Shown: positions 224 through 7,173 of the stretch, in pieces
Layout: every line of letters starts with the position of its first letter
Position numbering within the stretch: the first letter of the stretch is position 1
Origin: Promethearchaeota archaeon
GTDB lineage: Archaea; Asgardarchaeota; Lokiarchaeia; Sigyniarchaeales; SOKP01
Direction of reading: 5' to 3'
DNA: 63,704 nt
Assembly: GCA_011364975.1 (NCBI GenBank)
Contig: RDOE01000007.1
Coordinates: forward strand, 1-63,704
Made by a program: the position numbers and the translations under genes
The notes under the pieces: generated by a model
Seen by the model: only the letters and a program-made list of their open reading frames with translations
Database searches by the model: none
What the model was told of the DNA's origin: nothing

Positions 224-540
224 TATGTCATACACCTCTTTATTATTTTATTTTTAGAGAGTAATTTCTAAGTAAATATTCAAATAGTTATAATATAAAG
301 AATTTGACAAGAAGAATTCTAAATGTTTTGATAAATTAAATTATCAAAAATTAATGTTACACAATTTTTTTAGTTAGGCGAAATTCGTCATCATATGTTA
401 TATTTCAAAGAAGTCATGATCAATTTGATATGTTTATATGCTTGAAAAACATTTCATCACTTGAAGAAAATAAAATTTGTCATAAAAAAAATTTAGTAAA
501 TTTAGTTGATTAAAATAAGTAGGAGTTGAAATGAATAAAG

Positions 541-3087
541 TTGGACATTTATTCTATTTTATCTCATTCTATGAGAAGAAAGATATTATATCTTCTTGAA
601 AAAGAAGGTTTTATTTCTTACACAGACTTAATGGATAAATTAAACCTTGAACAAACTGGCCAATTAAATTTCCATTTAAAAAAACTCAATAATTTAATTG
701 GAAAAGATAAAAAATCTTATTTCTTAACTGATGATGGAAAGCAAATTTTAAGGATTTTAAGTATAAATAAACGAATTTTATCAGGTGAAGATCTTGAATA
801 TTTAAAATCTAAAGGTAGTGAAGTAAATAGGATTGGAGTTATTATCTGTAATTGCAATACCGAAATATCTAATGTTTTGAATATAAATTCGTTGGAAAGT
901 TATGTAAGTAAGCTTAATAATGTTGTCTCTGTGAAAATACTTAATAATTTATGCCAAGAAAGAAATCAAACTAAGATAAAAAACTGGATAACGGAAAATT
1001 TTATAAACAAAATTGTAATCGCAGCATGTTCTCCGAGGACCCACCAACATATTTTTGAACGTCTATTTCAAGGCATTATTGATAAAACTAATCTAGATAT
1101 CGCAAATATAAGAGAACAGTGTTGTTGGGTACACTATTCAATGAAAGATCAATTAGACAACCTTATAATCCTTAAAAAAGCTCAATTAATTATTGAAGCC
1201 ACTGTAATAAGATGCAGTTTACAAAAGGAGGTTAAAATAAAACGCGTAGAGGTTGAAAAAAGTTGTGTAATTTTAGGAGGAGGCATTGCTGGAATGAGTG
1301 TCGCTTTAAATCTATCTCGGGCAGGCTTTAAAGTATATCTTATTGAAAAATCTCCTACTTTGGGAGGCAAAATAGCACGATGGCATAAAATTTCTGAAAT
1401 GGGAGATTGTTCAATTTGTTTTACCTCTGAAGTAATTGGAGAACTCGTAAGAGAAGAAAATATTGAAATATTGACTAATACGCAGATATGCGACATTTCA
1501 GGAGAGATAGGTAATTTTTCTATTGAATTAATTAAAAATCCTCGCTATGTGGATGAACAAAAATGTACTGGCTGCACTCAATGTGTCGAAGTTTGCGCTA
1601 AAGAAGCAACAAATGAATTTGATTTTGGATTATCCACTAGAAAAACTATTTATTATCCATTTCAAAATTGTTATCCATATGTACCTGTTATTAACGAGGA
1701 GGATATTAATTATTGTTTAGAATGCAGAGTTTGTGAACGTGTGTGTGTTAATGGTGCCATAAATTTAGAAAAAACAGAATCTAAAATAAAATTAAAAGCT
1801 GGAGCAATTGTATTAGCTATAGGATCAGATATTTATAATAATTTAGATGATTACAATTACAATCCAAAAAATAATATTATTAACTCCGCTGAATTTGAGC
1901 GCATTATTTCCTCAGATGGGATAACTGAAGGAAAAATAGTTAAGCTTTCAAATGGAAAACCTGTTCAGACAATATCAATTATTCAAGAGGTTGGACCATC
2001 AAACTATTTATGTGATTATATGGATGAGGTAGCCCTTAAATATATCAAAATTATCGAAATGAAAAATCCTGGTTGTGAAGTCAATGTTTTTTATGACCTA
2101 AATAAATTAAAAGAAAAAGACGAAATAATACTTAGATATACTCATCCTCGATTTCTATATGCGAATGAAATAAATGTATCTACAAATGGTAAATCTAATT
2201 ACGTTATAGCAGATTCGATAGAATTTCAGAGTGATTTAATAATTTTAAATGCGAAATTTATTCCTAATCGCGATCTAAAAAACCTAAGAAAAATCATTGA
2301 TTTCAATTTAAATGAAAATGGATTTATAATAGAAGGAACTCTCGCTTCAGGTATTTTTGGAGTTGGTACTGTTTACGGGCCATTAGATTATAAATCAACA
2401 ATATCTACAGTTAATAATATTACCTTAAAAATAATATCTCTATTATCCAACGATTTTTTATTAGCAGAATATACTGGAATTGAAATAGATGAGGAGAAAT
2501 GTGGTTTATGTAATCTATGTATCTTATCTTGTCCTTATAATGCAATTATTATAGATTCTGAAAAAATAGCTATCGATAAATTCAAATGTAAAGGATGTGG
2601 CATGTGTGTTAGTGCATGCCCCACCAACGCTATTGAGATGAATCTTAATTCTTCTGAAAAGATCATTAAAACAATTGAAGCATTTTCGAAATTTAATAAA
2701 AGCCCCAAAATAATTGCATTTTGTTGTCAATCATGTGGTTATGCTGCTGCTGATGATGCAGGATTGAAAAGGATACTATATAGTCCCAACATTTTTATAA
2801 TTTCTGTTCCATGCGCAGGAAGGGTCGATAGTGAATTTATACTTAAATCTTTCGAGATGGGTTTTGATGGAGTAATGGTGATTGGTTGTAGAAAGGATTC
2901 CTGCAGATATTATGATGGTATAGAAAAGGTTAATAAGAAAATTCTAATATTAAAAGGAATTATCGGTCCTAAACTAAATAAAAGGATAACTTTGAAGAGG
3001 ATTAACTCTGTAGAAGGTCACAAATTTGCAAGAATTTCAAATAATATATATCAATTTATTTTAGAGGAGATGAAAAATGAAACTTAA
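541..3087 (+). CDS. hdrA: ArsR-like winged HTH fused to heterodisulfide reductase A-like flavoprotein and MvhD domain
   Basis: aa1-75 wHTH (LSHSMRRKIL...LNFHLKKL...YFLTDDG). HdrA motifs IGVIICNC, AACSPRTH, NIREQCCWVH, FAD motif GGGIAG, DCSIC, two 2x[4Fe-4S] ferredoxin modules. C-terminal MvhD (FCCQSCGYAAAD, VPCAGRVD, GCRKDSCRY). TTG start. Confidence 0.9.
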   Translation: MDIYSILSHSMRRKILYLLEKEGFISYTDLMDKLNLEQTGQLNFHLKKLNNLIGKDKKSYFLTDDGKQILRILSINKRILSGEDLEYLKSKGSEVNRIGVIICNCNTEISNVLNINSLESYVSKLNNVVSVKILNNLCQERNQTKIKNWITENFINKIVIAACSPRTHQHIFERLFQGIIDKTNLDIANIREQCCWVHYSMKDQLDNLIILKKAQLIIEATVIRCSLQKEVKIKRVEVEKSCVILGGGIAGMSVALNLSRAGFKVYLIEKSPTLGGKIARWHKISEMGDCSICFTSEVIGELVREENIEILTNTQICDISGEIGNFSIELIKNPRYVDEQKCTGCTQCVEVCAKEATNEFDFGLSTRKTIYYPFQNCYPYVPVINEEDINYCLECRVCERVCVNGAINLEKTESKIKLKAGAIVLAIGSDIYNNLDDYNYNPKNNIINSAEFERIISSDGITEGKIVKLSNGKPVQTISIIQEVGPSNYLCDYMDEVALKYIKIIEMKNPGCEVNVFYDLNKLKEKDEIILRYTHPRFLYANEINVSTNGKSNYVIADSIEFQSDLIILNAKFIPNRDLKNLRKIIDFNLNENGFIIEGTLASGIFGVGTVYGPLDYKSTISTVNNITLKIISLLSNDFLLAEYTGIEIDEEKCGLCNLCILSCPYNAIIIDSEKIAIDKFKCKGCGMCVSACPTNAIEMNLNSSEKIIKTIEAFSKFNKSPKIIAFCCQSCGYAAADDAGLKRILYSPNIFIISVPCAGRVDSEFILKSFEMGFDGVMVIGCRKDSCRYYDGIEKVNKKILILKGIIGPKLNKRITLKRINSVEGHKFARISNNIYQFILEEMKNET

Positions 3088-3835
3088 ATTGATTATAACT
3101 TCATTATCATCCTGTAGTGGTTGTATTTCCACATTACTTACTCTAGATATATTTCCTCAATTTTTTGAACGGACTGAAATTGAATATTTTCCTTTTATTT
3201 CTGATAATATAGAAATCTATGATTGTGATATTGCGTTAATAGAAGGGTCTGTTACAGAGCAAACACAAATCAAATATTTAAAAGAAATAAGAAAAAATAC
3301 TAAAAAGCTATACGCTCTAGGCACCTGTTCAGCATTTGGAGGTATTGTGAGTTTATCTACTAAAAAATTTTCGCAACCAATCTCAGACTTCGTTGAAATC
3401 GATGGAATGATACCTGGGTGTCCTCCTCCATCAATTTTGCTTGGAAATAATATGATCCGATTAATCGAAAATAAAAATATCATTTTAGATGAAAAAAACA
3501 TGTGTTCTACATGTCCACTTCGCTATTCTTTAAAAATACCTACACTCTCACAAGTTGAGAGGCTTATGCCTAAAAACAGTGATATAGATTTTCCAGAAGG
3601 CAATTTAATATGCTTTCTTAAGAAAGGAGTCCTATGTATGGGGCCAATTACTCGAAATGGATGTGAGAGTATTTGTATTAATCAAGGAATTCCTTGTGAA
3701 GGGTGCATGGGTCCAATTTCGAAAGAATTTACTTCTAATTTAGTAAACTTTCTTAGTCTTTTTAATATCAATGAAGAACTTAGAACATATGAAGGAATTT
3801 TTTATAGGTTTTCAAAACCCAAACTGAAGAGGTGA
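3077..3835 (+). CDS. mvhG: Group 3 [NiFe]-hydrogenase small subunit (MvhG-like)
   Basis: SCSGC, IEGSV, LGTCSAFGG, IPGCPP, CMGPITRNGC...C...PCEGCMGP. Overlaps the hdrA stop. Confidence 0.85.
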   Translation: MKLKLIITSLSSCSGCISTLLTLDIFPQFFERTEIEYFPFISDNIEIYDCDIALIEGSVTEQTQIKYLKEIRKNTKKLYALGTCSAFGGIVSLSTKKFSQPISDFVEIDGMIPGCPPPSILLGNNMIRLIENKNIILDEKNMCSTCPLRYSLKIPTLSQVERLMPKNSDIDFPEGNLICFLKKGVLCMGPITRNGCESICINQGIPCEGCMGPISKEFTSNLVNFLSLFNINEELRTYEGIFYRFSKPKLKR

Positions 3836-5142
3836 AAATAATGGATAAAGTTATAGATATTTGTACTAGGGTTGAGGGTCATGGTAATTTGAATTTTGTT
3901 TTCAAAAGTGAAGAATTATCTCATACGGAATTTACATTTTCTTTATATCGAGGATTTGAGAATATTTTAATTGGTAAAAAACTCTGTGACGTGCCAAAAA
4001 TAGTATCCCGAATATGTGGTTTGTGTTATTCTTCTCAAACAATTGCTAGCTGTAAGGCAATAGAAGATATTTATGGAATTGAGCCATCAATTCAATCTAT
4101 ATTGTTAAGAAAACTATTAATGACCTCAGAGTTGATAAAATCGCATCTATTACATTTTTTCTTTCAAACTCTTCCCGATCTTCTCAAAATTCTTGATATT
4201 AATGGACATATTAATAATGCCTACGATATATTTAATTATAATGACCAATTTACATCTAATGTATATAATTTATTGAAAATTAGCTCAGACATTAACCGAT
4301 TAATAGGAGGTAGAGTGATTCATCCAATCACGGTTATTCCTGGAGGAGTAATTAACAACCCAGAAAAAAAAAATCTCCTTTTAATACAAAAATATCTAAA
4401 ACGAGCCAAAGATTATGCTCAAGATTTAATCGAATATTTTATCACCCTTTTTTCTAAATATAATCCTCCGAATGAATATGATCTATCAAAATTATCATTT
4501 TTAGGGCTTTCAAATGAGAATATACATTCCAGATATGAGGGAGACATTATTATAAAACAACTTGAATCGAAACCACAATTATTTGCACCACACAATTATC
4601 AAGACTTTTTTAATAAAGATCAAGAACTATATGGCATCAACTTTCATACAATAAGAGGTAGCAAGGTCTTAACTGGGCCCTATTCTAGATTTAATATTAA
4701 AAGGGATTATTCCAATGACATAATATCCGATTACGTAAACCAATTTGAAAAACCCTGGAAAAAAAGTCTTTTATTCATGAATTTACTACAATTAATTGAA
4801 ATCTTTCTCGAAATCATTCAAAATTTAGAGACTATAAATGATGACTTAATTTCAAGTAAGTGGAATATTACCTCTCTTAAAGTTATTAAAAATAGAGATG
4901 GAATTGGAGTAGTAGAAGCCCCTAGGGGGTTATTAATGCATCATTATCATATTGATAACAATCAAAGAATTGACGGCGTGAAATTATTTATTGCAACTGA
5001 GATAAATTTACCGATTATTAACGAGATGATCGCTAAATATGCGCAAGAATTATTTTTAAAGCATGATATTAACACTGTTAAAGACAAAGTTCAAATAATG
5101 TTAAGAGCTTTTGATCCATGCATTTCCTGTCTTTCACATTAG
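3832..5142 (+). CDS. mvhA: Group 3 [NiFe]-hydrogenase large subunit (MvhA-like); probable ATG start at 3841
   Basis: TRVEGH, RGFE, L1 motif RICGLC, GGRVIHP, EAPRG, L2 motif RAFDPCISCLSH followed directly by the stop. Confidence 0.88.
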   Translation: MKIMDKVIDICTRVEGHGNLNFVFKSEELSHTEFTFSLYRGFENILIGKKLCDVPKIVSRICGLCYSSQTIASCKAIEDIYGIEPSIQSILLRKLLMTSELIKSHLLHFFFQTLPDLLKILDINGHINNAYDIFNYNDQFTSNVYNLLKISSDINRLIGGRVIHPITVIPGGVINNPEKKNLLLIQKYLKRAKDYAQDLIEYFITLFSKYNPPNEYDLSKLSFLGLSNENIHSRYEGDIIIKQLESKPQLFAPHNYQDFFNKDQELYGINFHTIRGSKVLTGPYSRFNIKRDYSNDIISDYVNQFEKPWKKSLLFMNLLQLIEIFLEIIQNLETINDDLISSKWNITSLKVIKNRDGIGVVEAPRGLLMHHYHIDNNQRIDGVKLFIATEINLPIINEMIAKYAQELFLKHDINTVKDKVQIMLRAFDPCISCLSH

Positions 5143-5175
5143 TAAAAATGTAATATTTAATTTAACTTTACACCT

Positions 5176-6204
5176 ATGGAGAAGTATCAGATAATGAACG
5201 AAGAAAAAAGCTGCAATTTTGCTAACTTATGTGAAATCTATCTCCTTTATTTTGATGAGGTTATTGGACATGTATTTCTATTGACTTGCCCAGAAGATAT
5301 AATATCTATTGATCCTACAAAAAAAAGTATTATCATGCATCATCCTATCTGGTTTTTAGAACTTGAAGATGATAAAACAATAAATCGAATAGATTTAGAG
5401 TATAATGAAGTTATGTATTTTGCGAGAAAATTTATAATAACTTCAGGAAGAACTAAAAAAAGAGCCGGTTCAACGGAAGAACAAAATGAAACAATAATAT
5501 TAATAATAACTCTTTCAGCTAATCTTGATATATTTGGAGGAGAGTTATTAAATCTATTAACTAGTAATCTTATGCATGAATTTAAGGACACACTTTATGA
5601 AGTAATAGAATCAGAAATAGCAAAATTAGAAATAATTAAAACTACAAAGATTATGCAAAAGATCGAAAAAGGAGATCAAATAAAGAAAAGAATAAAAATC
5701 ATAATTAATTCCGTTTGCGAAAATTATTTTTCTTCCATAATCAAACAGACTGATGCAATCTCTATTAAGCTCCAAAAAGCAATTTCTTACTTAATATTCA
5801 AGGGGATAGATATAGATCATATAGTTAGACAGTCTCATACTAAAGAATTCTCCAATATTAGATTATTCGATTATGATAAAATAAAAAAAAGTGATATTGA
5901 AACAAAAGAAAAATTTGAATTAATAAGCATTAACCCAATTAATGATTGTCAAGAATTTGAAATATTAATAAAAAATGTTTATTACAAGCCTTTAAATAAT
6001 TTAAGAGCTAAGGTTAGTTATATTCAAGATTTTTTCGAACAAGAAATTCTTAATGAAGGAATAGAAAAGTGCTTACCAGATGAGGAGTTACTCTTAGTTG
6101 TTCCGATTCCTAAAAAAATAAATGAATATATTTTTTCAATTATTAAAGATTCGACAAAAAAGAAATTATATTCTCGTAAACTAAATTTAGATTTAGATTT
6201 TTAA
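5176..6204 (+). CDS. Hypothetical protein with putative N-terminal longin/uDENN-like domain
   Basis: 342-aa ORF. IYLLYFDEVIGHVFLLTCP resembles the first beta-hairpin (F-D/H-x3-G-x5/6-P) of uDENN/NPRL2-type longin domains. Domain call is inference. Confidence 0.5.
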   Translation: MEKYQIMNEEKSCNFANLCEIYLLYFDEVIGHVFLLTCPEDIISIDPTKKSIIMHHPIWFLELEDDKTINRIDLEYNEVMYFARKFIITSGRTKKRAGSTEEQNETIILIITLSANLDIFGGELLNLLTSNLMHEFKDTLYEVIESEIAKLEIIKTTKIMQKIEKGDQIKKRIKIIINSVCENYFSSIIKQTDAISIKLQKAISYLIFKGIDIDHIVRQSHTKEFSNIRLFDYDKIKKSDIETKEKFELISINPINDCQEFEILIKNVYYKPLNNLRAKVSYIQDFFEQEILNEGIEKCLPDEELLLVVPIPKKINEYIFSIIKDSTKKKLYSRKLNLDLDF

Positions 6205-6216
6205 ATATAACATATG

Positions 6217-7173
6217 TTATATTTCATAAGTTGTTAGAAATTTTTTAAGATTCTCAAAATCTTTTCCCGTTAGTGTATTTAATACCATATTAAAAGAATC
6301 TTCCTGCTTATTTTTGGTTACAGCCATTAAGACTGAGCCATTACTTACTTCCTTTACCAAAATATAATTATTATCACTCTCATAGATAACGGTAGTTAGT
6401 TCTAATGGTGAAACTTGTTCATTTAAGAGTTCTTTGATTTTAGTAAAAATTTGATATATATTAGAATCAAGAGTGGACATTTCAAATTTTAAAAATTGAA
6501 GTGGTTTACTCTCAAATTTACCTAACGTAGAGGCTATTAGTAAACCATCTGGTTGGTTGAACAATAAATATTCAGAAAGAGTATTAAGTTTTAATTGGTC
6601 TAATAGATGTCTGACTTTTCCAAGACGTTGTAACGCTAAAGTATTTTGTTGTATCTGATAATCAAGAACCTCAATTAATCTATGCTGTGCACTTCCCTCT
6701 TTCACAGAAACAGGTGTAAATTCAAGCTTCAATTTTAAATCATCATTTATCCCTTCAATTAACTCCTCATATATTTTATCTTCTTTAGAGTTTTGAAGAT
6801 CAATTTTATTTAGGAGAACATATACTTTATTAATCTCTGGGCTAAATTCAAATATGTATTTAACAAAATTATCAAAAGTATCTTTAGTTTTTGAATCTTC
6901 AACAGAAGAATCAACCATAAATACTGCTGTAGAGACTTCTGAAAAAACTAACTCACGTTGTGATTCTGAAAAATATCTTTCCATATATGTTTCTTGTCCA
7001 CCTAGATCCCAAATTGAAAGTTCCATTATTCCTCGGAAAATAAAATTTTCTCTAGAAACTCCCTTTGTTGGTTTTAAATTAAGGACCTTCATGAAATTAT
7101 AGCCTAAACAAGTAGTTCTCATTAAACTTGTTTTACCAGCACCAGCAGGACCAAAAAGAAGTACTTTAATTAT
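6217..7173 (-). CDS. Rag/Gtr1-like small GTPase with C-terminal roadblock domain; start extended upstream to ATA/ATT
   Basis: Frame extends 17 codons upstream of the ATG at 7122 and gives IIKVLLFGPAGAGKTSLMR (G1). G2 PTKG, G3 WDLGGQETYMERYF (RagA-like), G4 NKID. C-terminal DGLLIAST...ILVKEV...VLMAVT roadblock pattern. Confidence 0.85.
   Translation of the reverse strand: MIKVLLFGPAGAGKTSLMRTTCLGYNFMKVLNLKPTKGVSRENFIFRGIMELSIWDLGGQETYMERYFSESQRELVFSEVSTAVFMVDSSVEDSKTKDTFDNFVKYIFEFSPEINKVYVLLNKIDLQNSKEDKIYEELIEGINDDLKLKLEFTPVSVKEGSAQHRLIEVLDYQIQQNTLALQRLGKVRHLLDQLKLNTLSEYLLFNQPDGLLIASTLGKFESKPLQFLKFEMSTLDSNIYQIFTKIKELLNEQVSPLELTTVIYESDNNYILVKEVSNGSVLMAVTKNKQEDSFNMVLNTLTGKDFENLKKFLTTYEI

Follow-up and report, generated by a model that had tools for sequence, protein, structure and literature searches.

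A winged helix fused to HdrA-MvhD in an Asgard [NiFe]-hydrogenase operon with a conserved palindrome in its own promoter: a candidate autoregulatory enzyme complex

The closest described relative of the system considered here is the MvhADG-HdrABC complex of methanogens (5ODC), which supplies the closest solved relatives of all four of its parts, and at the core of which lies a dimer of HdrA (PMC13580544). Our subject is the beginning of a 63,704-nucleotide (nt) stretch of DNA from a Promethearchaeota archaeon (contig RDOE01000007.1 of assembly GCA_011364975.1, positions 1 to 63,704 of the forward strand; this whole stretch is called the window below), where a single gene encodes a winged helix-turn-helix fused to HdrA and MvhD and is followed by genes for an MvhG-like small and an MvhA-like large subunit of a [NiFe] hydrogenase. 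The two systems share their NiFe, small-subunit Cys, FAD and HdrA/MvhD Cys motifs, but the archaeon of the window is not a methanogen, and its version has an extra N-terminal winged helix, HdrA and MvhD in one polypeptide, no hdrB or hdrC in the operon and a large subunit without a C-terminal tail. We discuss this complex here as a candidate regulator of its own promoter, in which a palindrome is conserved across many Asgard lineages.

Several other systems are worth having in mind. The HdrA2 of Methanosarcina provides the best-matching NCBIfam model for our protein (HdrA-MvhD fusion type; residues 97-838, E 4e-166), but the score of 554 bits lies below the cut-off of 1100, so that the fusion is to be called a relative of HdrA2 and not an equivalog. 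Fusions of HdrA to MvhD, together with multiple hdrA copies, have been reported in Loki and Thor assemblies, and the available part of that report mentions no DNA-binding domain on them (PMC11237513). Asgard group 3c hydrogenases are treated in two papers as Mvh-like partners of HdrABC with the heterodisulfide left unidentified; they are reported to be highly expressed and, in one culture, to be abundant as proteins (PMC11291895, PMC11216029). A link between winged helices and heterodisulfide reductase genes does exist elsewhere: in Methanosarcina barkeri the hdrBCA genes are activated by HdrR, a winged-helix protein whose target in the hdr promoter is a palindromic element (PMC11218639). HdrR is, however, a separate protein and an activator, whereas here the winged helix is part of HdrA and the position of the operator suggests repression. 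Our literature search, outside of which lay subscription journals and supplements, found no published account of a DNA-binding domain on HdrA in the text open to it, and no paper on DUF7347 or on an Asgard hydrogenase with a winged-helix HdrA.

For the logic of the arrangement, as opposed to its parts, PutA is the obvious comparison. This proline dehydrogenase flavoenzyme carries an N-terminal DNA-binding domain with which it represses its own put operon, and it is released from the DNA when its FAD is reduced. What is shared is the combination of a redox flavoenzyme, an N-terminal DNA-binding domain and an operator in the enzyme's own promoter; the folds are unrelated (ribbon-helix-helix and PRODH/P5CDH there, winged helix and HdrA here), and redox control of DNA binding is established for PutA, whereas in our case we infer it. 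The ArsR/SmtB and HxlR-type repressors share with the fused domain its fold (TM 0.6-0.7), an 'HLKKL' recognition helix and, as predicted here, a short palindromic target, but these repressors are small stand-alone dimers with sensor sites inside the domain, and the 'sensor' here would be a 750-aa flavo-Fe-S enzyme. Finally, HupUV/HoxBC are H2-sensing regulatory hydrogenases of group 2b that act with a HoxJ/HupT kinase. They resemble our system in having a large subunit without the extension and in the proposed coupling of a hydrogenase to gene regulation; in the present case, however, a kinase and a response regulator are both missing, the sequences fall with Mvh, and the signal would reach the DNA within one polypeptide.

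The fusion gene (541..3087, plus strand, 848 amino acids (aa), TTG start) comprises the DUF7347, ArsR-like winged helix-turn-helix (residues 1-77, 541..771), a linker (residues 78-96, 772..828), the HdrA body with its N-terminal Cys domain, FAD-binding GGGIAG motif and inserted and C-terminal ferredoxin domains (residues 97-720, 829..2700) and the MvhD domain (residues 721-848, 2701..3087). It overlaps by 11 nt the plus-strand gene for the MvhG-like subunit (252 aa, 3077..3835), which in turn overlaps by 4 nt the plus-strand gene for the MvhA-like subunit (436 aa, 3832..5142). The frame opens just 6 nt past a TGA stop, and homologues share the same first residue (MDIYSILSH...); an ATG at 531 was considered as an alternative start and rejected, being out of frame and closing after 20 codons. 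Pfam places DUF7347 (PF24038) on residues 2-72 (E 2.4e-10; 40.9 bits, the cut-off being 27.6) and FlpD/MvhD (PF02662) on residues 724-838 (E 3e-31), and it also recognizes Rossmann/FAD motifs around residue 243 and two ferredoxin regions. That such a junction might be an assembly chimera can be rejected, on the strength of the homologues described below and of contigs from three independent studies (runs X1, X3 and X12), which bridge positions 760-840 without a joint and run from the spacer through 1157 or 1500.

The fusion is anything but a singleton. When residues 1-100 were searched against proteins of 466-1484 aa, 108 of 322 candidates matched, nearly all of them of about 848 aa; PF24038 is given for 99 of these and PF02662 for 105 (table read by eye), and the nine without PF24038, which are 589-821 aa long with 70% query coverage, look like calls from an internal Met. 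The architecture recurs across many Asgard lineages, in some 100 protein clusters and in 65 loci. The loci come from contigs of one genome per species; 80 were kept, and in 65 of them the match begins at residue 1-3. The attribution to Asgard archaea holds because the homologues come from sources named Promethearchaeota, Promethearchaeia, Lokiarchaeota and Hermod-, Hod-, Thor-, Odin-, Hel-, Jord- and Sif-archaea; with one further locus on a Bathyarchaeota chromosome (42% identity), the fusion is confined almost entirely to the Asgard archaea. Two cassette contigs sit in bacterial bins (L029, Nanopelagicaceae bacterium, and L087, Deferrimicrobium sp., 73% and 66% identical to the window protein) and are probably mis-binned. 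Across the phylum, 143 of 400 genomes carry the domain at E<=1e-15, with the stronger matches mostly in frames of about 850 aa. Since the fusion is present in 91 of 134 genomes of the window's family and in 29 of 41 other species genomes of its genus, the cassette is common but accessory, and genomes rated 100% complete are also among those that are without it.

The start of the protein deserves a comment of its own. At the conserved first residue the 65 loci have 47 ATG, 10 TTG, 1 GTG, 4 ATA, 2 ACG and 1 GAG codons, the GAG being the Bathyarchaeota case, with an ATG one codon upstream. In the ATA and ACG cases no in-frame canonical start occurs before the upstream stop, and the peptide ahead of the next Met is still conserved. 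Gene prediction apparently begins these proteins at M31, hence the forms of about 816 aa. In a wider profile search of 1.84 billion cluster representatives, 2079 proteins matched at E<=1e-3, and among the 150 listed of these most are small (90-450 aa). The near relatives that were scanned (P0115, P0116, P0117 and P0122) also match the ArsR-type models HTH_5 and HTH_20, three of them with two tandem stretches, and the search brought up further winged helix-HdrA fusion clusters at the 50% identity level (P0129, P0132, P0174 and the partial P0114). What the initial annotation had read from the letters alone, namely the joining of an ArsR-like winged helix, HdrA and MvhD in one 848-aa frame ahead of overlapping mvhG- and mvhA-like genes, is thus borne out by the Pfam and NCBIfam matches and the gene coordinates; the contiguity of the junction, the recurrence of the architecture in other Asgard genomes and the winged-helix fold of the N-terminus, on all of which it had hung its proposal, have also held.

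Modelled alone, the winged-helix domain (pLDDT 89) has the order helix, helix, helix, recognition helix, beta-wing, helix, and the PDB matches listed by Foldseek are almost all DNA-binding winged-helix regulators (YodB, CadC, NolR with DNA, CggR with DNA, QsrR with DNA, CzrA and HlyU) at TM of about 0.6-0.7, with E values of only about 1e-3 because the domain is so small; a sequence profile run against PDB sequences finds the putative ArsR 1y0u (E 1.5e-4). In the AlphaFold2 model of the full-length protein (mean pLDDT 76) the domain stands at about 85 and the segment 78-94 at about 33, which suggests that this segment is a flexible tether. A two-copy complex prediction with the N-terminal domain of the second alignment described next scored 0.36 against a mark of 0.42 and speaks neither for nor against dimerization.

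To assess conservation we used two alignments, one of 30 full-length homologues 59-70% identical to the window protein and a second of the first 95 residues in 32 sequences, to which more distant lineages were added. The recognition helix T39-G-Q-L-N-F-H45 is invariant in the first; in the second T39, G40, L42 and H45 are invariant, and so are K55 and Y60 in the wing, of which the basic K55 does not vary in the first alignment either. Columns of the second alignment, which covers the winged helix, average 78% identity, and those of the whole protein in the first average 77%, so that purifying selection on the winged helix equals in strength that on the enzyme part. The face of the recognition helix is the most conserved part of the domain. 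Variant recognition helices do exist: loci of the Sifarchaeum type (L079 and L111) and four others (L112-L115) have TGRLTFH or SGKLNFH, and in these the strict palindrome introduced below is absent, its place being taken by an everted pair, TTGTCA-N18-TGACAA, or by degenerate GACAA elements. Helix and operator may therefore co-vary, in what are very few cases. The window genome (3.74 Mb) also encodes other DUF7347 proteins, small ones on contigs C17, C156 and C121 and one at C113:15973-16194 (L017 1462-3222), where a long C-terminal region (587+ aa, continuing past the end of the locus) follows the winged helix.

What is new here is the conserved palindrome GAYAA-N6-TTRTC in the operon's own promoter, an inverted repeat first seen when upstream regions were compared by eye. 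The upstream set comprises 65 regions of up to 400 nt, from the window and 64 loci (L039, with only 22 nt, was excluded). The strict 16-bp pattern GA[CT]AA-N6-TT[GA]TC matches 45 times in 39 of the 65 regions, whereas 300 dinucleotide-preserving shuffles average 0.26 matches and never exceed 2, and TGACAA/TTGTCA occurs in 44 of the 65 against 13.8 in shuffles; flanking positions extend the motif to TT-GAYAA-N6-TTRTC-A. Its density is 1.73 per kb upstream of the fusion and 0.064 per kb in control DNA (8 matches in 125 kb of other intergenic DNA from the same loci), and three of the eight control matches lie about 90 nt upstream of a gene of the family of the divergent upstream neighbour, which we call up78, sitting 4 kb away. 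In 13 further loci one or two copies are found at -1319 to -1520, in the promoter region of an FrhB-like gene that heads the operon. The genes that flank the sites fall into just three families: the fusion (39), up78 (32) and the FrhB-like gene (13). In a divergent set of 18 loci from four other Asgard families, whose winged helices are about 45-60% identical and whose promoters are often GC-richer, a strict copy lies within 450 nt upstream in 11, at -55 to -61 in 5/5 of one family and at -142 in 3/5 of another. Between lineages with 50-70% identical proteins, intergenic DNA should be randomized unless it is constrained.

Of 83 sites, 38 have a TATA-like octamer (TTTAWATA, with at most one mismatch) 2-7 nt away, compared with 391 of 13,200 random positions; 31 of the 38 are on the fusion-operon side, and 28 stand at a distance of exactly 4 nt. 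Archaeal repressors classically bind between the TATA box and the transcription start. Across the window genome there are 31 strict sites and 35-42 in block shuffles, so the motif is best taken as a local operator, and the idea of a global regulator motif was rejected on this count and because the 10 intergenic sites mark no coherent gene set; one of them lies upstream of a Cys-rich 221-aa open reading frame on contig C138, whose product may resemble MetV. In the window itself, the 305-nt AT-rich spacer of the divergent gene pair holds a predicted distal operator, which is the perfect palindrome GATAAATTAAATTATC (330..345) of the form GAYAA-N6-TTRTC with the TT...A flanks, and a TATA-like box TTTATATG of the fusion operon (433..440, plus strand), followed by a predicted, degenerate proximal operator, GAAAA-N5-TCATC (444..458), which was read directly from the sequence. 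Half-sites are found downstream of the proximal operator (TTGTCA, 477..482) and beside a TATA-like element of the divergent gene (TGACAA, 305..310).

On the enzyme side, the cofactor motifs are intact. The 28 Cys residues that are invariant in the 30 full-length homologues include every ligand of the HdrA and MvhD clusters, and the GGGIAG motif is invariant as well. The closest solved HdrA proteins are 8rvu_a (E 1e-107) and 5odc_A (E 6e-103), over residues 92-715, and the closest MvhD is 5odc_D (E 6e-22, residues 721-839). The small subunit finds its best solved match in the MvhG 5odc_E (E 7e-32), with which its CSGC, GTC, GCPP and C-rich C-terminal motifs align, giving the Cys patterns of the proximal and two further clusters, and the large subunit, with its motifs RVEGHG, RICGLC and a terminal DPCISCLSH-stop, aligns end to end with the MvhA 5odc_F (E 2e-49). 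The mvhG gene directly follows the fusion in all 58 loci with downstream DNA, and mvhA comes next in all 57 whose DNA extends to that point. Between the promoter region and the fusion, a gene of about 380 aa intervenes in the 13 loci (Hod-, Hermod-, Thor- and unclassified Promethearchaeota) mentioned above; the one from L048, the single one scanned, is FrhB-like (PF04432, E 9e-38; PF04422), and many of these loci have a second hdrA, without a winged helix, on the other side. This hints that F420 or a similar cofactor is a partner of the complex in the FrhB-bearing lineages. FrhB-like genes also adjoin HdrA/MvhD modules at L048 (5773-6891 and 2099-3217), L037, L043 and similar loci.

How should all this be read? 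We infer, from the sequences, that the operator is bound by the fused winged helix and that this binding represses. This would be the simplest account, since the fused domain is the sole DNA-binding domain inherited together with the operator (a comparison of the relatives' loci found no other DNA-binding gene conserved in the neighbourhood) and since, where the operator is conserved, the recognition helix hardly varies. A DNA-binding regulatory role is the best reading given the conserved architecture, the winged-helix model and the palindrome in the operon's own promoter, and we read the complex as a working enzyme because its enzyme part looks fully functional and an FrhB-like subunit is present in some operons. 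With somewhat more conviction than doubt, we think that the locus encodes an active Mvh-type (group 3c-like) hydrogenase/HdrA module and that the tethered winged helix lets this module repress its own promoter, by trigger-enzyme logic of the PutA type. A bolder proposal, which we entertain tentatively and would not bet on, is that the bifurcating hydrogenase complex is itself the transcription factor, and that the reduction state of the HdrA flavin and Fe-S clusters, as set by H2, switches the winged helices on and off the operator. If this were true, we would have a one-component H2/redox sensor-regulator within a metabolic enzyme, acting on its own operon and a small regulon that includes up78.

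In mechanistic terms, electrons would pass from H2 through MvhA, the MvhG clusters and the MvhD [2Fe-2S] centre to the HdrA FAD, and from there to ferredoxin and to a second acceptor, which might be HdrBC supplied in trans or, in some lineages, the FrhB-like subunit of the operon. An HdrA dimer, as in the solved complexes, would present two winged helices on tethers of about 17 residues, and these would bind the two half-sites of the palindrome GAYAA-N6-TTRTC, 11 bp apart and 4 nt downstream of the TATA box, so that recruitment of RNA polymerase would be blocked and the operon repressed; the second copy of the palindrome would serve the divergent 205-aa gene, up78. DNA binding would then respond to the redox or assembly state that H2 sets. 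Control of DNA binding by H2 or redox is pure conjecture on our part.

Some of the evidence weighs against autoregulation by the complex, and much of it is shared with the alternative that the winged helix is a structural or protein-interaction module, serving in dimerization or in docking HdrBC, up78 or the 342-aa protein encoded downstream, while a separate regulator binds the palindrome. Winged helices often serve as protein-protein modules in archaea and eukaryotes, and the conservation of linker residues (N76, R78, L80, G82 and E83) fits docking onto a partner as well. No strict site is found within 1.6 kb in 13 of the 65 loci, several of which have one-mismatch versions on inspection, or within 450 nt in 7 of the 18 divergent loci; moreover, related sequences are not independent, so that counts such as 39 of 65 overstate the number of events and are not probabilities. 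In the window itself the proximal operator carries two mismatches, and its spacer falls 1 nt short of that in the TACAAC...TTGTC/TTATC copy of close relatives, in which TTTAWATA precedes the palindrome by 4 nt, and because this copy is degenerate, control of the fusion operon here may be weaker or may run through the distal site. The HdrA2 score below its cut-off also counts on this side of the balance. An unlinked, dedicated regulator at the palindrome is possible, and the other DUF7347 proteins of the genome could be that regulator. Against the protein-interaction alternative stand the confinement of the motif to this locus across distant lineages, the inheritance of the fused winged helix with the motif as the sole DNA-binding domain, the DNA-bound repressors among its nearest structural matches, and the strong conservation of the recognition-helix face and of K55. 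We consider this alternative improbable, if the most serious of those that we have weighed.

The initial annotation had cast the complex as a candidate H2- or redox-sensing regulator, and part of this stands, since a DNA-binding regulatory role is the best reading of the palindrome and the fold. As to a dedicated sensor, in which the module would have no metabolic throughput and would simply report H2 to the winged helix as a one-component counterpart of HupUV/HoxBC, we think it quite unlikely. In its favour, regulatory hydrogenases have large subunits without the C-terminal extension, and the label 'tail-less' given to ours is correct, since 5odc_F runs 25 residues beyond the terminal His at which the window subunit stops. 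Among fusion-linked large subunits, 49 of 55 end at this His, five have tails of 5-11 aa and one ends in CISCLDA, so that universal tail-lessness, which we had considered, was rejected on the full count; the short tails belong to Hel and Jord relatives and the different ending to Bathyarchaeota. Tail-lessness does not decide between enzyme and sensor, because those tails are kept, a HycI-type protease gene is present elsewhere in the window genome (C191), and active enzymes such as Ech and CooH can likewise have a large subunit without a tail. The lack of hdrBC from the operon in Asgard loci, the winged helix with its conserved palindrome and the accessory nature of the cassette in the genus would also suit a sensor. 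Yet the strict conservation of the full set of bifurcating cofactors goes beyond what a sensor would require, an FrhB-like redox subunit belongs to the operon at 13 loci, and the closest solved relatives are the catalytic MvhA, MvhG and HdrA and not group 2b; there is no kinase or PAS partner, and the conserved neighbours in the window and in the relatives' loci include no histidine kinase.

Least probable, and very doubtful in our view, is a simple stoichiometry feedback in which surplus, unassembled wHTH-HdrA-MvhD represses the operon and the full complex hides or restrains the winged helix with no report of H2, an idea that draws on the same operator evidence, on the flexible tether and on the weak or non-canonical starts (10 TTG, 4 ATA and 2 ACG of 65), which suggest tight dosage control. 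The operator at up78 speaks against it by suggesting a small regulon in place of mere subunit balancing, and on present data the idea looks the same as redox control.

Turning to the neighbourhood, the window opens with a divergent gene pair around the spacer, followed by four close-packed plus-strand genes. The minus-strand member of the pair is the 5' part of up78, which is cut by the contig end (2..235, with a likely start at the ATG at 223 and GAGGTG upstream); its family is restricted to Asgard archaea, its full length is about 205 aa, and it lies directly upstream of the fusion in 29 loci. Within the genus, 28 of the 29 other species genomes with the fusion have a strong up78 orthologue, adjoining the fusion on the same contig in each case checked (for example G246, G250 and G233), and none of the 12 fusion-less genomes has one, four of them giving weak paralogue matches only. 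One deletion could remove both genes, because they are adjacent. Paralogues of up78 are also seen, as a tandem 243-aa copy in L027 (5308-6039, minus strand), in L048 (15896-16513, minus strand, 6 kb downstream) and elsewhere in the window genome (C22:34734-35270, 41% identical). The fourth plus-strand gene encodes an Asgard-only hypothetical protein of 342 aa (5176..6204), starts 33 nt past mvhA and may be the last gene of the operon; it is directly downstream in 20 of 57 loci. Neither this protein nor up78 has a Pfam match, for which reason both were rejected as hidden transcription factors, and their Atlas neighbours are Asgard-only hypotheticals; the sole named lead for up78 is TraB/GumN, at an Atlas score of 0.81, which is below the level that counts. 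Convergent with the 342-aa gene is a gene for a Gtr1/RagA-like small GTPase (6217-7122, minus strand; PF04670, E 6e-19), kept only in the closest relatives. These relatives also have methylene-H4MPT dehydrogenase genes within 6 kb upstream (L027 559-1407, plus strand, and 4241-5254, minus strand), encoding Mtd (PF01993, E 5e-106) and an Mpt_N-domain protein, and their proximity links the neighbourhood to the Wood-Ljungdahl pathway.

The heterodisulfide reductase partners are conspicuous by their absence from this neighbourhood, as the initial annotation had noted for the window, where tblastn searches using HdrB and HdrC of the same genome gave no match and where the contig (C180) gave none to the CCG domain of HdrB/D. 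Elsewhere in the genome there are 41 such matches. In the Asgard fusion loci tblastn found no HdrB or HdrC adjacent to the fusion, with weak or distant matches in eight, and only the Bathyarchaeota locus (L081) has strong HdrC and HdrB matches, 3 kb upstream. A second [NiFe] hydrogenase is encoded on contig C119 of the window genome (L025 7123-11432, minus strand), in the order vhuG-vhuA-hdrC-hdrB. Its VhuG (438 aa) has a duplicated C-terminal Cys module, its VhuA (434 aa) has no C-terminal CxxC motif and is probably split, with a small VhuU-type peptide, and hypC, hypE and hypD are nearby; the 13 kb examined at this hydrogenase contain no hdrA or mvhD. Given the 41 CCG matches and the hdrC-hdrB pair on C119, ordinary bifurcation with HdrBC acting in trans is possible. 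Many paralogues of hdrA or hdrA-mvhD are found in the genome (C145, C149, C69, C184 and C155), several of them with in-frame TGA codons, six of these in one match on C145, and these codons may represent gene boundaries or selenocysteine, the latter suggested by the title of a paper on Asgard selenoproteins (PMC11227280).

Exchange of H2 holds a central place in present thinking on how Asgard archaea live and on the syntrophy leading to eukaryotes, and to our knowledge almost nothing is known about how hydrogen metabolism is regulated in these archaea. The locus furnishes a concrete candidate for a regulatory circuit, with a defined domain (residues 1-95), a predicted operator of 16 bp and a small, conserved set of targets in many Asgard lineages. 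Names such as 'hydrogenase iron-sulfur subunit' and 'heterodisulfide reductase subunit A' miss a conserved domain of these proteins and its likely function, and would do so even if its role were autoregulation only. Should DNA binding prove to depend on redox state, no flavin-based bifurcating enzyme, and no hydrogenase complex, would have been known before this one to serve directly as a transcription factor, and it would extend the trigger-enzyme principle to the energy metabolism of archaea.

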